From positions 816,402 to 880,401 of the forward strand of contig CAWAEM010000004.1 in assembly GCA_963780935.1 (NCBI GenBank): a DNA stretch of 64,000 bases, read 5' to 3'. The notes under the pieces were generated by a model. The model did not search any database. It was not told where the DNA came from and saw only the letters and a list, made by a program, of their open reading frames with translations. A program made the position numbers and the translations under genes. The stretch comes from an uncultured Acidobacteriota bacterium. GTDB taxonomy: Bacteria; Acidobacteriota; Terriglobia; Acidiferrales; UBA7541. This document shows positions 50,647-59,962 of the stretch, piece after piece. Each line of letters starts with the position of its first letter. Position 1 is the first letter of the stretch.

Positions 50647-50828
50647 TTCTGACTTACGAGATAGTGAAGATAGGGGCGGGTGTCTGTCAAGGGAACGAAG
50701 TGGACGCTGCTTATTCTCGAAAGAAGTTCGCTGGCATCGCTTCGGGATGGCGCGCGCGAGAACGTCCGCGCTAGGAAATTGCGGCGTTGTACAGTAAGGT
50801 AAAGTTTCGTGGATTTTGGAGGAAGACG

Positions 50829-51161
50829 ATGTCTGACGATTCTTGCACACCGACACCCGCTGCCAGTGAGCCGCCAAAGCCCGGCACGCGTATGGTGCAT
50901 TGCGTGAAATTTGATAAGGATTTGCCGGGGCTCGATCGCGTGCCCTGGAAGGGCGAAATCGGGAAACGCGTCTACGAAAACGTCTCGAAAGAGGCCTGGA
51001 AATTGTGGATTGAGCATTCCAAGATGGTGATGAACGAATACCGATTGAATCCGCTGGATCCGAATTCCATGAAAATTATGGAAGAACAAATGGAACAGTT
51101 TTTCTTTGGCGCGGGCGCGAAATTGCCGGAAGGATATGTGGCGCCGAAGGCCAAAGGATAA
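50829..51161 (+). CDS. yggX: Fe(II)-trafficking / oxidative-damage protection protein
   Basis: RMVHCVKF...GKRVYENVSKEAWKLWIEH...MNEYRLN...QMEQFFFG; start at ATG 50829. Confidence 0.9.
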   Translation: MSDDSCTPTPAASEPPKPGTRMVHCVKFDKDLPGLDRVPWKGEIGKRVYENVSKEAWKLWIEHSKMVMNEYRLNPLDPNSMKIMEEQMEQFFFGAGAKLPEGYVAPKAKG

Positions 51162-51172
51162 GGAAGCTGCGC

Positions 51173-52516
51173 TTAGATTTGTGACGACGGATGGTGCACC
51201 GCAAGGCGTGGCGCGATTTGGAATTGCAGGTTGCCGTGAGCTAGACGCAGCGCATTTTCCACTGTTCCGGGATCTTCCCCGCGCGCGAAAATGAAACCCA
51301 AATAGCTGGCGCCCTCCGGCCATGCGGCGAGATAGTCATGCGCGCGCGCGGTGATCGCAATTTGCGTAACGCCCGGCGTTGCGGCGGCTTGTTGCTCGCC
51401 GCTGACGCCTTCGAAAATGCCGCTTTGCGGAACGGGGATCATCATTACGCCGGATGATATTTGCTCCCGCGACGCATCGGCGCCCGTCAATTCCAGCGCG
51501 TGCCGCAACAACAATTCTTCGAGCCCGATTGGCGCGTTTCCGGAATTTGCAATGAAGCGCAGAGATTGCGCGCAGAGGCCGCCGATGGGCCGCGGTGCGA
51601 TTTCGATTGGCCACACCGTCGCATCGCCGGCGGATTCTTCGGCAAGATTTCCTGTTGCTGCGCTGCTGCGGTCGGCAACGCGAAATTCCGCGTGCACGGG
51701 ACCGTGCGAAAGTCCCAGCGCGGTCACTGCGGAGCGGAGCGACTTTTCAATCGCCGCGATTTCTGGCAGCGGCAAGCGGCTCGGCGTGACATAGATGGTT
51801 TCCTCGAAGTACGGACCCTCGAGGGGATCGGGCTTGTCAAAAATCGCGAGAATGCGTAGATCTCCTGCGGTCATCAACGCTTCGACCGCGACTTCCCTGC
51901 CGGCAAGATAACCTTCGACGATCATTTCGCCGAGCCGCGGCTCGCGCGTGGCCTGAATTTCCGGCGAACGCAACAGCCTGCGGATTCGCATCGCCGCATC
52001 GACAAATTGCTCGCGATTATCGGCGCGAATGACGCCTTGGCTGGCAGAAAGCGCCAGCGGCTTCAGCACGCACGGATACGGAATCCCCAGCAGCGCGGGC
52101 TCTGGAACGGGATCGAGCGGAATCGCGCGAAACCACGGCACCGGCAATCCGGCTTCGCCCAACACTTCGCGAGTGCGCAGCTTGCTGCGGCAAGCTTCCA
52201 CCGCGGCGGGATGGTGAAAGGCGATGCCCAGCGAGCGGGCTGCAAAAGCCGCGGCATGCGCCGGGCGGTCACCGAGCGCGATAATTCCGTCGATTTGCAG
52301 AGGACGGGATTTCTCGATAGCGGTTTGCGCGGCTTCGCCGGGCGACTCGAAGTGCACCGCTATGGCACGGTCTTCCCATGGATCGTCCAATTGGTGGCAG
52401 CGATCCGTGACGTACACGAGCTCTACATGCAATTTTTTCGCGGCTTCCTTAAAGCTGCGCGTTTGATAGCCCAGCTTGGCGGCGAAGAGTAAGACGCGTT
52501 TGACGGTTCCAGACAT
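51173..52516 (-). CDS. ATP-grasp ligase (L-amino-acid-ligase-like)
   Basis: YPCVLKP...SQGV, IVEGYLAGREVAVE, HGPVHAEFR, IEIAPRPIGG. Confidence 0.88.
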   Translation of the reverse strand: MSGTVKRVLLFAAKLGYQTRSFKEAAKKLHVELVYVTDRCHQLDDPWEDRAIAVHFESPGEAAQTAIEKSRPLQIDGIIALGDRPAHAAAFAARSLGIAFHHPAAVEACRSKLRTREVLGEAGLPVPWFRAIPLDPVPEPALLGIPYPCVLKPLALSASQGVIRADNREQFVDAAMRIRRLLRSPEIQATREPRLGEMIVEGYLAGREVAVEALMTAGDLRILAIFDKPDPLEGPYFEETIYVTPSRLPLPEIAAIEKSLRSAVTALGLSHGPVHAEFRVADRSSAATGNLAEESAGDATVWPIEIAPRPIGGLCAQSLRFIANSGNAPIGLEELLLRHALELTGADASREQISSGVMMIPVPQSGIFEGVSGEQQAAATPGVTQIAITARAHDYLAAWPEGASYLGFIFARGEDPGTVENALRLAHGNLQFQIAPRLAVHHPSSQI

Positions 52517-52550
52517 GATTGAGAATTTGCTTGAGATTCCCTAAACGACC

Positions 52551-54059
52551 CTAAACAAATTGATCCGCGGAGAGCGCTGGATGTTTCACGGGAGTTAATT
52601 TTATCGCCGGCGGCGCGACCGGAAGCACGGACGTACCGGCAATGGAAACGAACTGCGCGGGCGTAGGCTCAGCGCAGCAATACCAGGGCTCGCTCAGAAA
52701 CGGCACCGGCGTCGCAGGCGATTGCCGTGTCAGCTGCGGAGGTTGTAGCGCCGAAGCTGCGTGGGCGGCTTGCCAGATGCTTTCAAATGCCGCAAAACGC
52801 GTGAGTTTTTCCGCGTCGGTTTGCGCCGCGATCTCCTGAATCTTCACGCTTAGTGCATCGACGCGCAAATCGCTGTGCTGCCAGGGGAACACCAGTGATT
52901 TCGCATCGAAAGGACCAACTGTATTGCGGATTTCCGGCAATTCCAAAAGGCGCGAACCCGCTGGGATGAGCAAGCGGATACCGAATTGGATAGGCGCTAC
53001 ATTTTCGATGAGATTTTCGTCGCGTATCACGCGCAAGAGATCGCGAAAGTCTTCGAGCGAGCTCCACGGAGCGAACGGGACAAATGTCGGATGAAGCGTC
53101 ATCCCCAGTTTGCGAAAGTTTTCCACCACCGCGAGAAAATCCTGACGCGTGTGACCCTTGTCGAGAATTTGCAGCGCGGAGTCGTTCACAGATTCCACCG
53201 CACTGATCACGAAAAGGCAGCCGGTGTCGCGCAGCGCAGGTAAGTGTTGCGAATATTTCATCAAATGTTCGATCTTAATGGTGACGTCGTAGGTGATCGC
53301 GGCAAATTCTTCGTGAAACAATTTGATAATTTCCAGCGCATGCCCGATGCCGTTAAAAAAATCAGGATCGCCAAACGATATATGCTGCGCCCCGGCGGCG
53401 ACTTGGCGGCGGATATCCTCGAGCACCACTTCACGCTGCACGATGCGAAAAACCCCTTTATAGACCGGTACAATCGGGCAGTGGCGGCAGAGATGCTTGC
53501 AGCCGCGGCTGGCTTCCGTCGAGCCCACCACACGATAACCAGCGCCAGGGATCATGAGATGCGCGTATGTTTCGATGGGCGGGAGGCCGCTGCGATCCGG
53601 CACCTCGAACGCTAGCCGCTCTAAAGAAATCAGTGGCTGGCGCTGCAACGAATCGGGAACCTGCGCGAAGGCTGCTCCATCACCGGAGCGGCGCGCCGAC
53701 AACTCGTCTGCGAGATTTGTGAGACCAGCCTCAAATTCGCCGCCGAGCAACGTTTGTACACCCAGCTCTTTCAAGTATTCGATGTTCATGGGCGCGTACA
53801 AGCCGTAACAACAAAGGTGCGCATGAGGACTTCGCCGGCTTAATTCGGGAATAAGTTGCGCCGCGATCCGCGTGGCGGTATGCATCGGCAAGTAGATGGC
53901 GATGAGTTCAGCGCGAGCGATCGCGCCCTCGTCGAGTGGCTGGCGCGTCAAGTCGAGGCAAGTGACCTGGTGACCTCGCTTGCGAAGCCACGCCGCGGGC
54001 GACACAAGACCAAACGGCTGACGCCCCAATTCGTAGGTAGAAATCAGAACGATGTTCAT
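52551..54059 (-). CDS. B12-binding-type radical SAM protein with C-terminal CCAEP motif
   Basis: N-terminal cobalamin-binding-like domain ([12 protein letters not shown]); [10 protein letters not shown] (CxxxCxxC); FGDPDFF; PWYCCAEP at 52665-52679; start at ATG 54059. Confidence 0.88.
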
Positions 54060-54197
54060 AGCGCAAAGCACCACAAGCCCGCGACATTTGCCGCGCGCAT
54101 CTTTGAGGCAAGGCTGCTACCAGGACAGTATAGCCGTCCGCGGGCCGCCGCGAATTCGGTTATCATAGAGCCACGATTTCTTGAAAGGACGGCTGGA

Positions 54198-56864
54198 ATG
54201 GTCATCTCCGCGGGAAATACTTTCGGAACCAGCGACACGCTGCACGTCGGCGCGCAAAGCTTTGAAATTCGCCGTCTCGAACAGCTCGAGAAAAAGGGCG
54301 TGGGGCACCTGCAAAGACTGCCGTTTTCGCTGCGTATCCTGCTGGAAAATTTGCTGCGGTGTGAAGATGGCCGCTTCGTGCATCCTGCCGACATTGAAGC
54401 ATTGGCTTCCTGGAAGCCGAACTCCGCCGAAAAAGAAATTGCCTTCATGCCGGCGCGCGTGCTGCTGCAGGATTTTACCGGCGTCCCCGCGGTAGTGGAC
54501 TTGGCGACAATGCGCGAAGCGTTTACGCGCATGGGCGGAAATCCCAAGCGCATTAATCCCATTTTTCCCGCCGAATTGGTGATTGATCACTCCGTGCAGG
54601 TCGACAGTTTTGGGAACGTCAACGCATTTGGCCTGAACGCGGAGCTGGAATTTCAGCGGAACGTGGAACGCTACGCGTTTTTGCGCTGGGGCCAGACGGC
54701 GTTCCAGAATTTCAAAGTGGTGCCGCCGGACACGGGAATTTGTCATCAAGTGAATCTCGAATATCTGGCGCGCGTGGTTTGTGTAATGCCCTCGGGCAGC
54801 CGCTTTGAGGCGTTTCCCGATTCCGTGGTGGGCACCGATTCTCACACCACGATGATCAACGCGCTCGGCGTTTTCGGTTGGGGCGTAGGCGGAATTGAAG
54901 CCGAAGCCGCGATGCTTGGACAGCCTTCATCGATGCTGATTCCAGAAGTGGTGGGCTTCCGGCTGCACGGGAAATTGCGCGAAGGCGCGACCGCCACGGA
55001 CCTGGTGCTGACAGTGACGGAAATGCTGCGCAAAAAGGGCGTAGTCGGAAAATTTGTGGAATTTTACGGTTCGGGCCTATCCACTTTGAGCGTCCCAGAT
55101 CGCGCGACGATTGCCAATATGGCGCCGGAATATGGCGCAACCATGGGATTTTTCCCAGTGGATGCGGAAACTTTGTCCTATCTGCATTTCACGGCGCGCG
55201 CCCAGGAACAGATCGCGCTGGTGGAAGCTTATTGCAAAGAGCAGTCGCTTTTCCGCACGGATCAGACCCCGGATCCAATCTTCAGCGACACGCTGCAACT
55301 CGATTTAGAAAGCGTGGAGCCGACGCTGGCGGGGCCAAAACGCCCCCAAGATCGTGTGGCGCTGCATCAAGCGAAAGCGTCGTTTGTGAAAGTGCTCGAG
55401 GGTGCGCCGGCGAAACACGTTGCGGTGAAAAACAATGGCGACTCTTTCGACCTTTCCAGCGGATCCGTAGTGATTGCGGCCATCACCAGTTGCACGAATA
55501 CCTCGAATCCAACGCTGATGCTTGGCGCGGGATTATTGGCCAAAAAAGCGGTGGAACGCGGTTTGCGCAGCAAACCGTGGGTGAAAACCAGCCTCGCGCC
55601 AGGCTCGAAAGTGGTGACGGACTATCTGAAGGCTGCGGATCTTACAAAATATTTGGACGCGTTGAATTTTCAACTGGTCGGATACGGCTGCACCACGTGC
55701 ATCGGAAACAGCGGGCCGCTAGCGGAGAACATCGGTGCGGCCATTAAAGACAATAATCTGGTAGCGGTCGCGGTGCTCAGCGGAAACCGGAATTTTGAAG
55801 GGCGAATTCATCCGCTGGTGCGCGCGAACTATCTGGCGTCGCCGCCTTTGGTGGTGGCCTATGCGCTGGCGGGACGCATGGATGTGGATCTTACCAGCGA
55901 ATCCTTGGGAAACGGAAGCGATGGCCAGCCTGTATATTTGCGCGATATTTGGCCCACGCCGCAGGAAATTGAGAGCACCGTGCGCGCGTCGGTGACCAGC
56001 GAGCAATATCGCAAACAATATTCCGAAGTGTATGAAGGTGACGCGCATTGGAAGTCCATGCCCGTGCCCGAGGGCGACGTTTACCAATGGGATCCTAAAT
56101 CCACGTACATCAAGATGCCGCCGTATTTTGAAAACATGCCGAAAGAACCGGCCCCTTTGGCGGATATCCATGGCGCGCGAGTGCTGGCGATTCTGGGCGA
56201 CAGCGTGACCACCGACCATATTTCGCCCGCGGGATCCATCGCTGTGGATTCGCCGGCGGGAAAATATTTGATCGCCCATGGTGTGAAACCGCACGAATTT
56301 AATTCTTATGGAGCGCGCCGCGGAAATCATGAAGTAATGATGCGCGGAACTTTTGCGAATATCAGATTGCGCAATCAACTGGCGCCGGGCACGGAGGGCA
56401 GCTGGACTTTGCACTTGCCGGGTGGCGAGAAGATGTTCATTTACGATGCCTCGCTGAAATATCGCGAAGCGGGCGTGCCGTTGGTGGTGCTGGCCGGCAA
56501 GGAGTACGGCTCCGGGTCGTCGCGGGATTGGGCGGCGAAGGGTACGCGGCTGCTGGGCGTGCGGGCGGTGATCGCGGAGAGCTACGAACGCATCCATCGC
56601 AGCAATCTGGTGGGCATGGGCGTACTGCCACTGGAATTTTTGCCGGGAGAAAATCGCCAGTCGCTCGGACTGACGGGCCACGAAGTGTTTGAGGTTTCCG
56701 GCGTGGCCTCGCTGGCGCCGAAAAAGAAGGTCACTTTGAAGGCCACCGTGGCGGACGGAACGGCGAAAACGTTTTCAGCGATTGCCCGCGCCGATACGCC
56801 AGAAGAGGTTTTGTACTACAAGCACGGCGGGATTCTGCAATACGTCTTGCGGCAGATGCTGTAG
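54198..56864 (+). CDS. acnA: Aconitate hydratase A
   Basis: [69 protein letters not shown]; start moved to ATG 54198. Confidence 0.97.
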
Positions 56865-56930: not shown

Positions 56931-58409
56931 CTAAATGCGGCCCTGGCGTTTTTGCGCGAGGACCAAGCCGCGCGGTGTCGGTAGCAGCAGTACCGAGAGC
57001 AGGCCTTCCTGCTCCATCTTTAGTGCGGCGGCACGGACGGTATTCATCGATGAGCTGGCGTCGTGCATGACGATGATGCCAAAGGGGTTGATTTGCGGCA
57101 GGAAGCGCCGCACTTCCTGCTCGCGAATGGATGTTTCGCTGTCGCAAAATAGAAAATCGATGCGCCCAGAGACCGTCATCTCGAGGCTCGATTCGTTGCG
57201 GGCCTCGATCCACAGCGCTAGCTCCGATGCTTGAAAGCGTTCGCGTGCCGCAGCAAACACTTTTGCGTCATATTCGCAGGTGATAATTTTTCCTACGCCA
57301 TTTTCTCTCAGCCCGTCCGCGATGCGCAGCGTGCTGATACCGGAAAACGTGCCTGTTTCAACCACCAGTTCCGGCTTGAGCGTGATGACCAGCGCTTTCA
57401 AAAAATCCAGTACTTCTACTTCCGCGGTCATGGAATCGTACATGTGCCACCGTCCGGGATGCGGGCATTCGGGAGTTGCTTTGTGATATTCCGGCTGCAA
57501 AACGTCGCCGCGGGAATGGATGTGTTCTACGATGCGGTGTTCTTGCTTAAGCGCGTGGAATTGGCTTTTAAGACGCCAAAGAAGCACCGCGCCAACCAGG
57601 ATGGAAAGCAGGCTAGCGGCTTGCGCGTTACTCAGTCCGAAAAAGGAACGCGGATTGATGCGTAAAAACTCAACGAAAAAGCGCGCGAGTCCGGTGAGAA
57701 TCAAATAATTGCAGAAAATTTCGCCTTTGGCCTTCGGACCGCGCAAAGTCTTGCTTCCCATATGCCACAAGAATGCTGCGATGGCGATCCAGACGAAAAA
57801 CTCGTAAATCGGCGTGGGATGCACGGCGCAATTTGCCGGCCAGCCCCACTGCACGCAAGTTTCCGTGGTGGGCACAACGCCATTGGGAAAACTCATCCCC
57901 CACGGCAAATTTGTGGGGCGCCCGTAGTCGCCGTCGCCCGAGAGCAAGCAGCCGATACGCCCGATTGCGTAACCGACAGCGGCAGCCGGCGCGCAGATGT
58001 CGAAAAATTCCAGGAGCGGAACCTTGTAGTAGCGCGCGAGCAACACCAGCGCCAGAAAGCCGCCGATGAAGCCGCCGAACCAGGCGAAGCCGTAGCGCGT
58101 GAGCAGCATGGGCTTGGGATCCGCGAAGAATTCGCGCGGTGTTTCGAGCACGTGGTAGAAACGCGCACCCACCAACCCCGCGATTCCCGCGATGGTGACA
58201 ATCAGAAAACCTTCGTCTCGCGGCGGAGGCTCGAGTTGCGTGCTGGTTGATTTCCCCGATTTTTTCGATTTCTTTGGCGGTCGTACCGGGAAATTTCCGC
58301 GACGATTGATGTCGCTCTGCAGAATGTAGCCCGCGACCAGCACAGCCGTAGCCACCATTAATCCAAATGTGGGAATGGTCAGCGGGCCAAGATGCAGAAA
58401 GGGAATCAT
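56931..58409 (-). CDS. lgt: Lgt-family prolipoprotein diacylglyceryl transferase fused to a class I SAM (O-)methyltransferase
   Basis: N-terminal ~278 aa: GFAWFGG, IGRIGC, PWGMSFP, HPTPIYE, ARFFVEFLR; C-terminal ~190 aa: VVETGTFSGIST, ITCEYD, DFLFCDS, IVMHD; one open frame. Confidence 0.85.
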   Translation of the reverse strand: MIPFLHLGPLTIPTFGLMVATAVLVAGYILQSDINRRGNFPVRPPKKSKKSGKSTSTQLEPPPRDEGFLIVTIAGIAGLVGARFYHVLETPREFFADPKPMLLTRYGFAWFGGFIGGFLALVLLARYYKVPLLEFFDICAPAAAVGYAIGRIGCLLSGDGDYGRPTNLPWGMSFPNGVVPTTETCVQWGWPANCAVHPTPIYEFFVWIAIAAFLWHMGSKTLRGPKAKGEIFCNYLILTGLARFFVEFLRINPRSFFGLSNAQAASLLSILVGAVLLWRLKSQFHALKQEHRIVEHIHSRGDVLQPEYHKATPECPHPGRWHMYDSMTAEVEVLDFLKALVITLKPELVVETGTFSGISTLRIADGLRENGVGKIITCEYDAKVFAAARERFQASELALWIEARNESSLEMTVSGRIDFLFCDSETSIREQEVRRFLPQINPFGIIVMHDASSSMNTVRAAALKMEQEGLLSVLLLPTPRGLVLAQKRQGRI

Positions 58410-58627
58410 GAACAGGATTGAACCTAGGAAGTATACATGAAGGTTTCGTCCAACTCCGGCGCACGCGGAGCGCGGCCGGGGCGAAGCGAACGTACTAGAA
58501 CCGCCCCCCCCGGATGTTAACCGAGCGCCAGCCTTCTTGTAACAAAACAGCAACAATGCACGATTAGTTTGTAACCGGTCGCGGCAGCGTCCCCGCTGCA
58601 GTTCCGACACTCTTCATTTCCAAAAGG

Positions 58628-59962
58628 ATGGTCATGGCAATGATAAAAAAGGCCGCAGTTTTGGGTCTATTCGCGGCGGCACTGGCGCTCTCCGGCGCGG
58701 TACGCGCGCAAGAAGGCGCTGTCCCGAAAGGCGTTCCGCACCTGGACCACGTCTTCGTGATCATGATGGAGAATCACGGTTTCCATCAAATTCTTAACAA
58801 TCCCGATGCACCCTTCATCAACGAATTGGCAAATTCCGCAAACCTGGCGACCAATTATTTTGCCGTAGGCCATCCGAGCTCAACCAACTACTTGGAAACG
58901 GTAGGCGGATCGAATTTCGGGGTACGTTCCGACAACTATCCGGATTGGCATGATGCGAACTGCGTACCGAATTTAATCAGTGGATTCACGACCACCGATA
59001 ATCCTTCCAGTCCGCCCGTCTGCCCCATCGCCGGAAGCGGCGCGGACGCAGCCACGCCCGCGATTGATTGCACGAATGAAGTGCAGACCACGCCCCCGAA
59101 CTGTTACGACGACCTCGACGGCACGCTCTCCATCGCCTCCGCGCCGAAGACCGTCGGCAAATCGATTGCCGATCAACTGGCGGAGCGCGGCCGCGGCTGG
59201 CGAAGCTATCAGGAAAGCCTGCCTCCGGGCGGCGCGGATACAGTAAACATCAGCGACGGATTCTTCACGAACAACACGGATTTTACGTCGTACCTGCCCG
59301 GTTTCGCGTCATGGAGCATTCAGAACGTCACGATTCCCGCCGTACAGAACCAAACACAGGCGCAGAACGACATCGTCTATCTGTACGCGGTGAAGCACAA
59401 CCCCTTTGCCTACTTCAAGAGCGTGCAGGAAGACACCATTCCGGGCGGAGGCCTGCGCAATGTACGTGGATTTGACGGTCCAGAAGGCTTGTATGCCGAA
59501 TTAGCGTCGGGCGATGTACCGGCATTTTCGTTTATCGCGCCGAATCAGTGCAACGACCAGCACGGACGCGGCAATGCGGGCCCGTTCTGCAACTTCGATG
59601 CATCCGACAACGGCACGCAATCGGGGCTTAACGGGACGGAGATCTACCGCGGAGACGTAACGGTGCAGACGATCGTGAAAGCCATCAAAAAATCCCCGGC
59701 GTGGCGCGAAGGCAACAACGCACTCGTCGTCATGTGGGACGAAAACGATTACACCGCCACGCCAAACCAGGTCATGGTGATCGTGGACAAGAACTACGGC
59801 GACAAACACGTAAAGAGCAGCACCTTCTACACGCACTTCTCGCTGCTGCGCACCATCGAAGGCGGTCTCGGATTGCCGTGCTTGAACCATGCTTGCGATG
59901 CGAGCACCAGCACCATGACGGATCTGTTCCACCGTGGCGATGGAGACGGCGACGATAAGTAA
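58628..59962 (+). CDS. Secreted phosphoesterase (phospholipase C / acid phosphatase family)
   Basis: Signal peptide; DHVFVIMMENH, HPSSTNY, YAVKHNPF, PNQCNDQH, MWDE, YTHFSLLRTIE. Confidence 0.88.
   Translation: MVMAMIKKAAVLGLFAAALALSGAVRAQEGAVPKGVPHLDHVFVIMMENHGFHQILNNPDAPFINELANSANLATNYFAVGHPSSTNYLETVGGSNFGVRSDNYPDWHDANCVPNLISGFTTTDNPSSPPVCPIAGSGADAATPAIDCTNEVQTTPPNCYDDLDGTLSIASAPKTVGKSIADQLAERGRGWRSYQESLPPGGADTVNISDGFFTNNTDFTSYLPGFASWSIQNVTIPAVQNQTQAQNDIVYLYAVKHNPFAYFKSVQEDTIPGGGLRNVRGFDGPEGLYAELASGDVPAFSFIAPNQCNDQHGRGNAGPFCNFDASDNGTQSGLNGTEIYRGDVTVQTIVKAIKKSPAWREGNNALVVMWDENDYTATPNQVMVIVDKNYGDKHVKSSTFYTHFSLLRTIEGGLGLPCLNHACDASTSTMTDLFHRGDGDGDDK

Follow-up and report, generated by a model that had tools for sequence, protein, structure and literature searches.

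The radical S-adenosylmethionine (SAM) enzyme ArsL forms the C-As bond in arsinothricin biosynthesis. It has a normal CxxxCxxC motif, converts SAM to methylthioadenosine (MTA) and a 3-amino-3-carboxypropyl (ACP) unit, and holds its acceptor, arsenite, on three cysteines of a C-terminal RCCLKC sequence (10.1101/2024.02.01.577332). An Fe-C(gamma) organometallic intermediate in ArsL was described in a 2026 preprint (10.64898/2026.04.29.721666), and neither of these two papers mentions a cobalamin requirement for ArsL. For another family of radical SAM (rSAM) proteins, named after its CUAEP or CCAEP tail, structure and function were stated to be 'not well known' (Haft 2022, bioRxiv 10.1101/2022.07.06.499078). 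Here we describe a member of this family encoded in a 64,000-nucleotide stretch, referred to below as the window, of contig CAWAEM010000004.1 from an uncultured Acidobacteriota bacterium of the order Acidiferrales (assembly GCA_963780935.1). The rSAM gene is followed on the reverse strand by an ATP-grasp gene of the L-amino-acid-ligase type, and the two genes recur together in two phyla with an iron or iron-sulfur (Fe-S) helper gene near most rSAM copies. The family was curated previously and has remained unstudied. Our best explanation of the whole, to which we give a probability of about 0.5, is that an ArsL-like rSAM product is coupled by the ligase into a dipeptide, with the helper serving the iron of the system.

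The rSAM protein matched NF040546, the 'CUAEP/CCAEP-tail radical SAM (seleno)protein' model, over nearly its whole length (positions 1-466 of 468) and with 598 bits (cut-off 500; E 1.2e-179). A preliminary description of this DNA, made from the letters alone, had named such a family, subject to verification; the family exists and includes the protein, which the scan placed in a curated family without a known substrate and not in a characterised one. The second-best NCBIfam model was that of ArsL (NF040542), whose 277 bits fell short of the cut-off of 450, so that the protein is not an ArsL family member, and all remaining rSAM families scored about 36 bits or less. The radical SAM core (PF04055) covered residues 189-346 with 44.5 bits (threshold 29.5), and the CxxxCxxC motif was present. 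Over residues 2-410 the protein was 32% identical to an RCCLKC-tail protein from Alicyclobacillus. A literature search on the family returned only the 2022 preprint as naming it.

The tail that gives the family its name was read in 112 homologues from the fetched loci in which the tail lay inside the contig, with TGA translated as selenocysteine (Sec). The CUAEP form with an in-frame TGA was found in 71 of the 112 tails and the CCAEP form in 41, and a longer motif, L-x-E-P-W-[YF]-C-[UC]-A-E-P-T-x-x-Q, was common to all of them. The window protein has PWYCCAEP at residues 458-465 and represents the cysteine form of a family that mostly carries Sec. Loss of the Sec machinery was considered as the reason for the cysteine form and was rejected, because the genome still has a tRNA-Sec gene (contig C2, 74824-74922, outside the window). 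The TGA form was also seen in about half of the same-genus relatives.

Thirty-two diverse family members were aligned with three ArsL-family proteins using MAFFT. About 97 columns were near-invariant in the family, many of them common to ArsL, and the Cys-Cys or Cys-Sec pair of the tail aligned with the CC of the ArsL RCCLKC sequence, the position of the third ArsL cysteine being Pro in the window protein. One further cysteine, C281 in the barrel, was invariant in the family in this and in a second alignment, and is Val in the ArsL-family proteins. With C281 and the tail pair on one side and the three cysteines of RCCLKC on the other, both families keep three non-cluster Cys/Sec residues, and by this alignment one of the three appears to have shifted from the tail to the core in the CUAEP/CCAEP family. 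C281 together with Cys461-Cys462 may form a single acceptor site with three soft ligands. The 37-residue extension that follows the motif in the window protein was found only in Acidiferrales relatives; the proteins of other lineages stop about 8 residues past the motif.

An AlphaFold2 model of the rSAM protein built with 25 homologues had a mean confidence (pLDDT) of 83.3 and a pTM of 0.84; the tail motif scored 57-80 and residues 470-502 about 30. In a Foldseek search with this model, the N-terminal part matched Rossmann-like domains and the part after it the rSAM barrel. The top match was AprD4 (6fd2, E 6.5e-17), followed by TsrM, MgmA, OxsB, CysS, MiaB and TokK; E-values for TsrM, MgmA, OxsB and CysS were 1e-15 to 1e-12, and the alignments with AprD4, TsrM, OxsB, MgmA, CysS and TokK spanned 466-520 columns. 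A sequence search of the PDB gave a single match of no use (E 0.008). The modelled architecture is class-B-like, which is the sole basis of the weak label 'B12-type' given to the protein in the preliminary description; the cobalamin-binding domain PF02310 scored 16.9 bits, below its threshold of 32.1. AprD4 is itself a cobalamin-independent enzyme with a B12-like N-terminal domain. With a sub-threshold cobalamin domain, AprD4 as the top structure and ACP transfer as the chemistry of the nearest characterised relative, methylation or rearrangement of carbons by B12-dependent enzymes is not the most suitable guide to the reaction.

These structural matches bear directly on a serious alternative, that the rSAM protein is a canonical 5'-deoxyadenosyl-radical enzyme (a dehydratase, an isomerase or a C-H functionalising enzyme) acting on an amino acid or on the dipeptide of the ligase, and that the tail is a redox or resolving pair like the Gly-Cys-Sec-Gly of thioredoxin reductase. 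AprD4 and the class-B enzymes ranked after it all make 5'-deoxyadenosyl radicals or use cobalamin, interchange of Cys and Sec at one position (71 versus 41) is what redox-active or nucleophilic residues typically show, the length and conservation of the motif around the pair point to a catalytic tail that docks, and coupling to a ligase would fit this chemistry equally well. It is harder to reconcile with the sequence relationships, in which ArsL is the nearest relative by far (277 bits, with the next family at 36), the tail CC aligns with the arsenite-binding CC of ArsL, and a third invariant cysteine is kept, as a three-ligand site would require. We hold a canonical radical mechanism to be unlikely, although by no means far-fetched. 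ACP transfer, argued for here by analogy with ArsL, seems to us to have slightly less than an even chance of being the chemistry of the rSAM protein.

The coupling of the rSAM and ligase genes was followed first within the order and then beyond it. An rSAM protein above the NF040546 cut-off was encoded in 35 of 41 relatives from the Acidiferrales, and the ligase gene followed the rSAM gene in 12/12 relatives within the order and in 73 of the best 80 of 561 public loci, these 80 being near relatives; other phyla were sampled by separate genome searches. Among the seven loci that lacked the ligase, three contigs ended too early, one had a phage-integrase insertion, one (L041) had no ligase within 4 kb downstream, and two came from other phyla, namely a Thermomicrobiales metagenome-assembled genome and Nonomuraea. 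The insertion lies in an Acidiferrales-like contig (L091, 6270-7574), where a phage-integrase-family gene in the usual place of the ligase suggests the insertion of a mobile element.

Since adjacency within one order could be mere synteny, presence and absence of the two genes were tested across phyla. Of 201 Acidobacteriota species genomes, 28 had both genes, 1 the rSAM gene only, 7 the ligase gene only and 165 neither (Fisher p 1.3e-26); the corresponding numbers for 201 Chloroflexota genomes were 40, 2, 11 and 148 (p 1.4e-29), where both p-values ignore shared ancestry and the pattern covers many families. The rSAM family was thus present in 14% of the sampled Acidobacteriota and 21% of the sampled Chloroflexota species genomes. 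In Acidobacteriota loci taken from different families, the ligase was not within 8 kb of the rSAM gene in 9 of 20 cases; it was located elsewhere in the genome for eight of the nine, and the ninth genome (G074) had no ligase orthologue at all. The 40 Chloroflexota pairs comprised 8 with the rSAM gene before the ligase, 10 in the reverse order, 9 convergent and 13 unlinked. Thermomicrobium roseum DSM 5159 has its rSAM gene (TRD_RS12835) on the megaplasmid and its ligase gene on the chromosome. Gene order and orientation therefore vary, and about one third of the pairs are unlinked in genomes holding both. Because the co-occurrence survives rearrangement and unlinking, there is good evidence that rSAM and ligase share a function. 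The association proposed from the window proved strong in both phyla, where the two genes were far from rarely found together. The notion of an operon fared less evenly: it suits the same-strand pair with its 34-nt spacer in the window and fails for the third of genomes in which the pair is unlinked. In four soil and rhizosphere metatranscriptomes, short contigs of low depth mapped to the ligase, rSAM and yggX genes, and a 151-nt piece matching 52488-52638 with 0 mismatches crosses the rSAM stop and the ligase start. This junction piece is weakly indicative of co-transcription, because DNA carry-over in metatranscriptome libraries is possible.

The ATP-grasp protein contains ATP-grasp_4 (PF13535, 102.4 bits against 27) and LAL_C2 (PF18603, 45.5 bits against 29.4), so that the ATP-grasp assignment of the preliminary description holds and can be narrowed to the L-amino-acid-ligase type. 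Its best solved relative was 3VOT, the L-amino acid ligase BL00235 (E 2.7e-29, 105 bits, residues 46-411), followed by BacD. In a tree, the ligases that partner rSAM proteins, that of the window included, formed a single clade supported at 100/100. At the N-terminal position BL00235 prefers Met or Leu, and Met is itself a 2-amino-4-X-butanoate.

The ligase also bears on whether the pair could modify a peptide or protein, either as a system for ribosomally synthesised and post-translationally modified peptides with a remote precursor or with the ligase attaching an amino acid to the carboxylate of a protein, as RimK and LysX do. Weak ATP-grasp similarity of the ligase to RimK and LysX (E about 0.002-0.003) and the conserved acidic/aromatic C-terminus of the rSAM protein point in this direction, and a protein target encoded elsewhere had been left open in the preliminary description. 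Its further statement that there is no space for a precursor-peptide open reading frame (ORF), and no transporter or regulator, was borne out: no precursor-sized ORF was present in the 34-nt or 11-nt gaps, in the immediate flanks or in the loci of relatives, and no transporter or regulator in the immediate flanks of the pair. The NCBIfam and Pfam scans of the module proteins gave no match to an RRE/PqqD or SPASM domain. The C-terminal domain of the ligase is specific to L-amino-acid ligases and its best solved relative acts on free amino acids, genomes with the ligase only imply that the rSAM tail is not an obligate ligase substrate, and the neighbours of the rSAM gene in other phyla are amino-acid enzymes (aminotransferase, GCS2 ligase, methyltransferase). 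Action on a peptide or protein is therefore very improbable in our view, whereas we think it probable that the two enzymes form a coupled pathway with a free amino acid or small molecule as its substrate. The two-enzyme small-molecule module without a precursor peptide, as first proposed, gains from the gap check, the type of the ligase and the coupling in two phyla.

The amino-acid enzymes just mentioned come from variant clusters. In Nonomuraea sp. NPDC050783 (L092, 6126-13884) a CCAEP rSAM gene is accompanied by a divergent GCS2 carboxylate-amine ligase, a class I methyltransferase, a class I/II aminotransferase, a DUF169 protein and a nearby TetR regulator, and the genome has no orthologue of the ATP-grasp ligase; this locus of a cultured actinomycete has the appearance of a small biosynthetic gene cluster. 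The rSAM gene of T. roseum is adjoined by an aminotransferase and a major facilitator superfamily (MFS) transporter. The partners in these clusters, and in the ArsL plasmids considered below, all act on free amino acids.

The gene yggX, convergent with the ligase in the window, had been treated as a mere boundary of the module. This does not agree with the wider sample: among 133 loci the genes near rSAM were the ligase in 112, yggX in 93, nfuA in 13, yggX or nfuA in 105, both in 1 and DUF169 in 9. The window YggX is a clear member of its family (NF003817, 121 bits against a cut-off of 74; PF04362, 119.6 bits against 27) and is encoded by a single-copy gene. It adjoins the module in many Acidobacteriota families in variable orientation, in one locus directly upstream of the rSAM gene with no ligase nearby, and in Chloroflexota it is found immediately upstream of the rSAM gene or beside the ligase. 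In other lineages an NfuA-type protein (PF01521 and PF01106) replaces YggX, often together with DUF169, so that the two genes are near-exclusive alternates at rSAM loci (1/133 with both); one or the other was present in 19 of 20 Chloroflexota loci. We found no paper that describes this rSAM protein, an L-amino-acid-ligase-type ligase and either YggX or NfuA, in some cases with DUF169, as one module. Elsewhere in the genome of the window there is an unlinked DUF169 homologue (contig C6, 475461-476090, outside the window) that may once have belonged to the module and become detached; it shares 42% identity with the DUF169 protein that follows rSAM in another acidobacterium. The gene acnA, divergent from the rSAM gene, was considered as a module member and rejected, its adjacency being limited to the Acidiferrales.

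Family membership, domain architecture, the conserved tail and Cys281, and the coupling of the two genes with an Fe or Fe-S helper across phyla are shown by the data above; how SAM is cleaved, what X is, which substrates the ligase joins and what the product does are inferred in the following scheme. The rSAM protein, a sister of ArsL, would reductively cleave SAM at S-C(gamma) and pass the ACP unit to an acceptor held on C281 and on Cys461 and Cys462 of the tail (a Cys-Sec pair in most relatives), yielding a non-proteinogenic 2-amino-4-X-butanoate. The ligase would then couple this amino acid to a second one with ATP, giving a dipeptide. YggX here and NfuA elsewhere could supply or repair the iron-sulfur cluster of the rSAM protein in these aerobes, where such help may be needed after damage by an Fe-C intermediate or by oxygen.

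Several observations weigh against this scheme. How SAM is cleaved cannot be read from an identity of 32% to ArsL, and we know of no sequence determinant that distinguishes cleavage to ACP from cleavage to 5'-deoxyadenosyl. The top structural match, AprD4, is a canonical 5'-deoxyadenosyl enzyme, and the literature search found no biochemistry on any CUAEP/CCAEP family member. The idea that YggX is a dedicated component of the module was rejected, since 75 of the 201 Acidobacteriota genomes carry PF04362 as a single-copy gene and the module is missing from many of these; YggX is a general protein that is frequently beside it. An antibiotic role fits poorly, because the module is near-universal in the order (35/41) and no transporter or resistance gene is found here. 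Partner-clade ligases also occur in near-complete genomes truly without the rSAM gene (at least three), which means that the ligase does not strictly depend on the rSAM product. Explanations of these ligase-only genomes as assembly gaps or as a paralogous clade were rejected for at least three near-complete genomes, in which the rSAM gene is absent and the ligases fall inside the partner clade. In two Acidobacteriota genomes (G064 and G079; L125, 5087-7272, and L126, 5923-7981) the ligase adjoins an NfuA-type gene and no rSAM gene of the CUAEP/CCAEP or ArsL type is present. This adjacency is unexplained if NfuA serves the rSAM protein alone. Either the ligase can work without the rSAM product, or its tie to the Fe-S helper is meaningful in itself. 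No recurrent partner beyond nfuA was found among the neighbours of unlinked ligase genes. The coupling of ArsL to ATP-grasp proteins described below also counts as parallel (analogous) and not orthologous, because a very long branch separates the ligases.

A bolder proposal can also be made. The CUAEP/CCAEP proteins would be a second, far more widespread class of rSAM enzymes of canonical fold that take SAM as ACP donor, forging, in place of a bond to arsenic, a C-S, C-Se or other soft-element bond on an atom held at Cys281 and the Cys-Sec pair, and the dipeptide, perhaps a low-molecular-weight thiol or selenol or a chelator, would serve iron or Fe-S homeostasis and not act as an antibiotic. 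We consider this speculative and decidedly unlikely as a whole. It would explain the adjacency of yggX or nfuA, the persistence of the ligase with nfuA where the rSAM gene is missing, and the near-core status of the module in aerobic soil lineages.

The positions of the features are collected in Table 1. All coordinates and gap sizes of the preliminary description (34, 138 and 11 nt) were confirmed by the ORF check.

Table 1. Features of the rSAM-ligase module (positions in the 64,000-nt window; minus, reverse strand) and ATP-grasp genes of ArsL clusters (positions in the named locus).
Feature	Position	Strand	Remarks
CCAEP-tail radical SAM (rSAM) gene	52551..54059	-	ATG at 54059, 502 aa; alternative upstream GTG at 54074
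CxxxCxxC motif (C187, C191, C194), site of the SAM-cleaving [4Fe-4S] cluster	53478..53501	-	invariant in 32/32 family members and 3 ArsL-family proteins
Cys281, core cysteine	53217..53219	-	invariant in CUAEP/CCAEP family; Val in ArsL-family proteins
Conserved tail motif, residues 455-465	52665..52697	-	Cys461-Cys462 at 52674-52679
C-terminal extension, 37 residues after CCAEP	52554..52664	-	predicted disordered; ends in conserved [DE]-x-F-[VL]
rSAM-ligase intergenic spacer, 34 nt	52517..52550	-	spanned by metatranscriptome contig
L-amino-acid-ligase-type ATP-grasp gene	51173..52516	-	447 aa; PF13535 + PF18603
yggX (Fe(2+)-trafficking / oxidative-damage protection protein)	50892..51161	+	convergent with ligase; NF003817, PF04362
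ATP-grasp gene, Alicyclobacillus acidocaldarius	L114 2436-3668		ArsL cluster
ATP-grasp gene, Priestia megaterium	L115 2659-3882		ArsL cluster
ATP-grasp gene, Klebsiella pneumoniae	L116 7709-8773		ArsL cluster
ATP-grasp gene, Bacillus cereus AH820	L134 2444-3667		ArsL cluster

The start of yggX is uncertain, with ATG codons at 50892 and 50829 in an ORF that opens at 50787; its end at 51161 gives the 11-nt convergent gap to the ligase. The acnA ATG at 54198 gives the 138-nt divergent gap to the rSAM gene. The genes around the module are housekeeping genes (methylmalonate-semialdehyde dehydrogenase, glucokinase, zwf, a HAD hydrolase, acnA and lgt). Further along the window, the 559-aa ORF at 56931-58610 on the reverse strand matches prolipoprotein diacylglyceryl transferase (Lgt) over residues ~135-344; no NCBIfam model matches its last ~200 residues, which look class I methyltransferase-like by eye, and the ORF may encode a fusion. 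The forward-strand gene at 58628-59962 encodes a protein of 444 aa that begins like a signal peptide and matches no NCBIfam model; its VIMMENHGF motif resembles, by eye only, the phosphoesterase / phospholipase C family.

The relationship to ArsL was also followed at the level of gene clusters. All four ArsL-family plasmid clusters that were opened carry an ATP-grasp protein (Table 1). Three of the four ATP-grasp proteins were searched against Pfam and had ATP-grasp_4, with LAL_C2 just below threshold in two. These proteins were considered as orthologues of the window ligase and rejected, as they are separated from it by a very long branch and are 25% identical over 223 aa. In the three Bacillota clusters the ATP-grasp gene adjoins a gene of the carboxymuconolactone-decarboxylase (CMD) family, and a COG0523-like GTP-binding protein is encoded nearby in 4/4. 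Judged from these gene contents, a peptide may be formed from arsinothricin or from its precursor; the literature search found no paper linking arsinothricin with an ATP-grasp ligase.

This parallel raises the possibility that the rSAM protein is an ArsL isoenzyme which converts arsenite to hydroxyarsinothricin, the ligase then making a dipeptide that contains arsinothricin. No characterised family is closer than ArsL, a site with three soft ligands could accommodate As(III), and an ATP-grasp ligase is present in ArsL-family clusters too. The protein lacks an RCCLKC tail, however, and its score lies below the ArsL cut-off. No homologue of ArsM, ArsN1, ACR3, ArsC or CMD was found in the 148 fetched loci (~2.07 Mb); the genome of the window has an ArsM-like gene and arsC on another contig, and ArsN1 was not found in it. 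It would also be odd for a system that makes an antibiotic from a trace metalloid, with no resistance gene, to be so common: the family occurs in 14-21% of the species genomes of two phyla and is near-universal in the order. We regard an arsenite substrate as extremely improbable.

To our knowledge, no CxxxCxxC radical SAM enzyme other than ArsL has so far been shown to cleave SAM to an ACP unit. If the proposed ACP chemistry is true, noncanonical SAM cleavage is a common trait of soil bacteria and not a quirk of one arsenic antibiotic, and the product is a new natural amino acid and dipeptide. As the window copy is the cysteine form, it could be expressed in Escherichia coli without selenocysteine machinery, which makes the question directly testable. 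For the ArsL plasmids of Bacillus, Priestia, Alicyclobacillus and Klebsiella, the ATP-grasp genes suggest that arsinothricin may also exist as a peptide.

Compared with known systems, the rSAM protein has the N-terminal Rossmann-like domain before the barrel in common with AprD4 and the class B rSAM enzymes, and differs from them in its low identity (13-18%) and its sub-threshold PF02310 score. The ligase has the ATP-grasp_4 core and LAL_C2 C-terminal domain of BL00235 and of BacD (YwfE, bacilysin); the relation is distant (105 bits), and the window ligase is genomically tied to an rSAM protein and Fe-S helpers, whereas the characterised ligases are not. Similarity to ArsL extends over the two-domain architecture, the position of CxxxCxxC, dozens of invariant residues, a C-terminal vicinal cysteine pair at the aligned position and three non-cluster Cys/Sec residues in total, and the ArsL clusters on plasmids of Bacillota and Klebsiella likewise carry an ATP-grasp protein. 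In contrast to ArsL, the window family has the tail L-x-E-P-W-Y-C-[U/C]-A-E-P instead of RCCLKC and its third cysteine in the core (C281), most of its members are selenoproteins, the window protein reaches 277 bits against the ArsL cut-off of 450, and its neighbours are YggX or NfuA, sometimes with DUF169, where those of ArsL are ArsM, ArsN1, an aquaporin and a GTPase.

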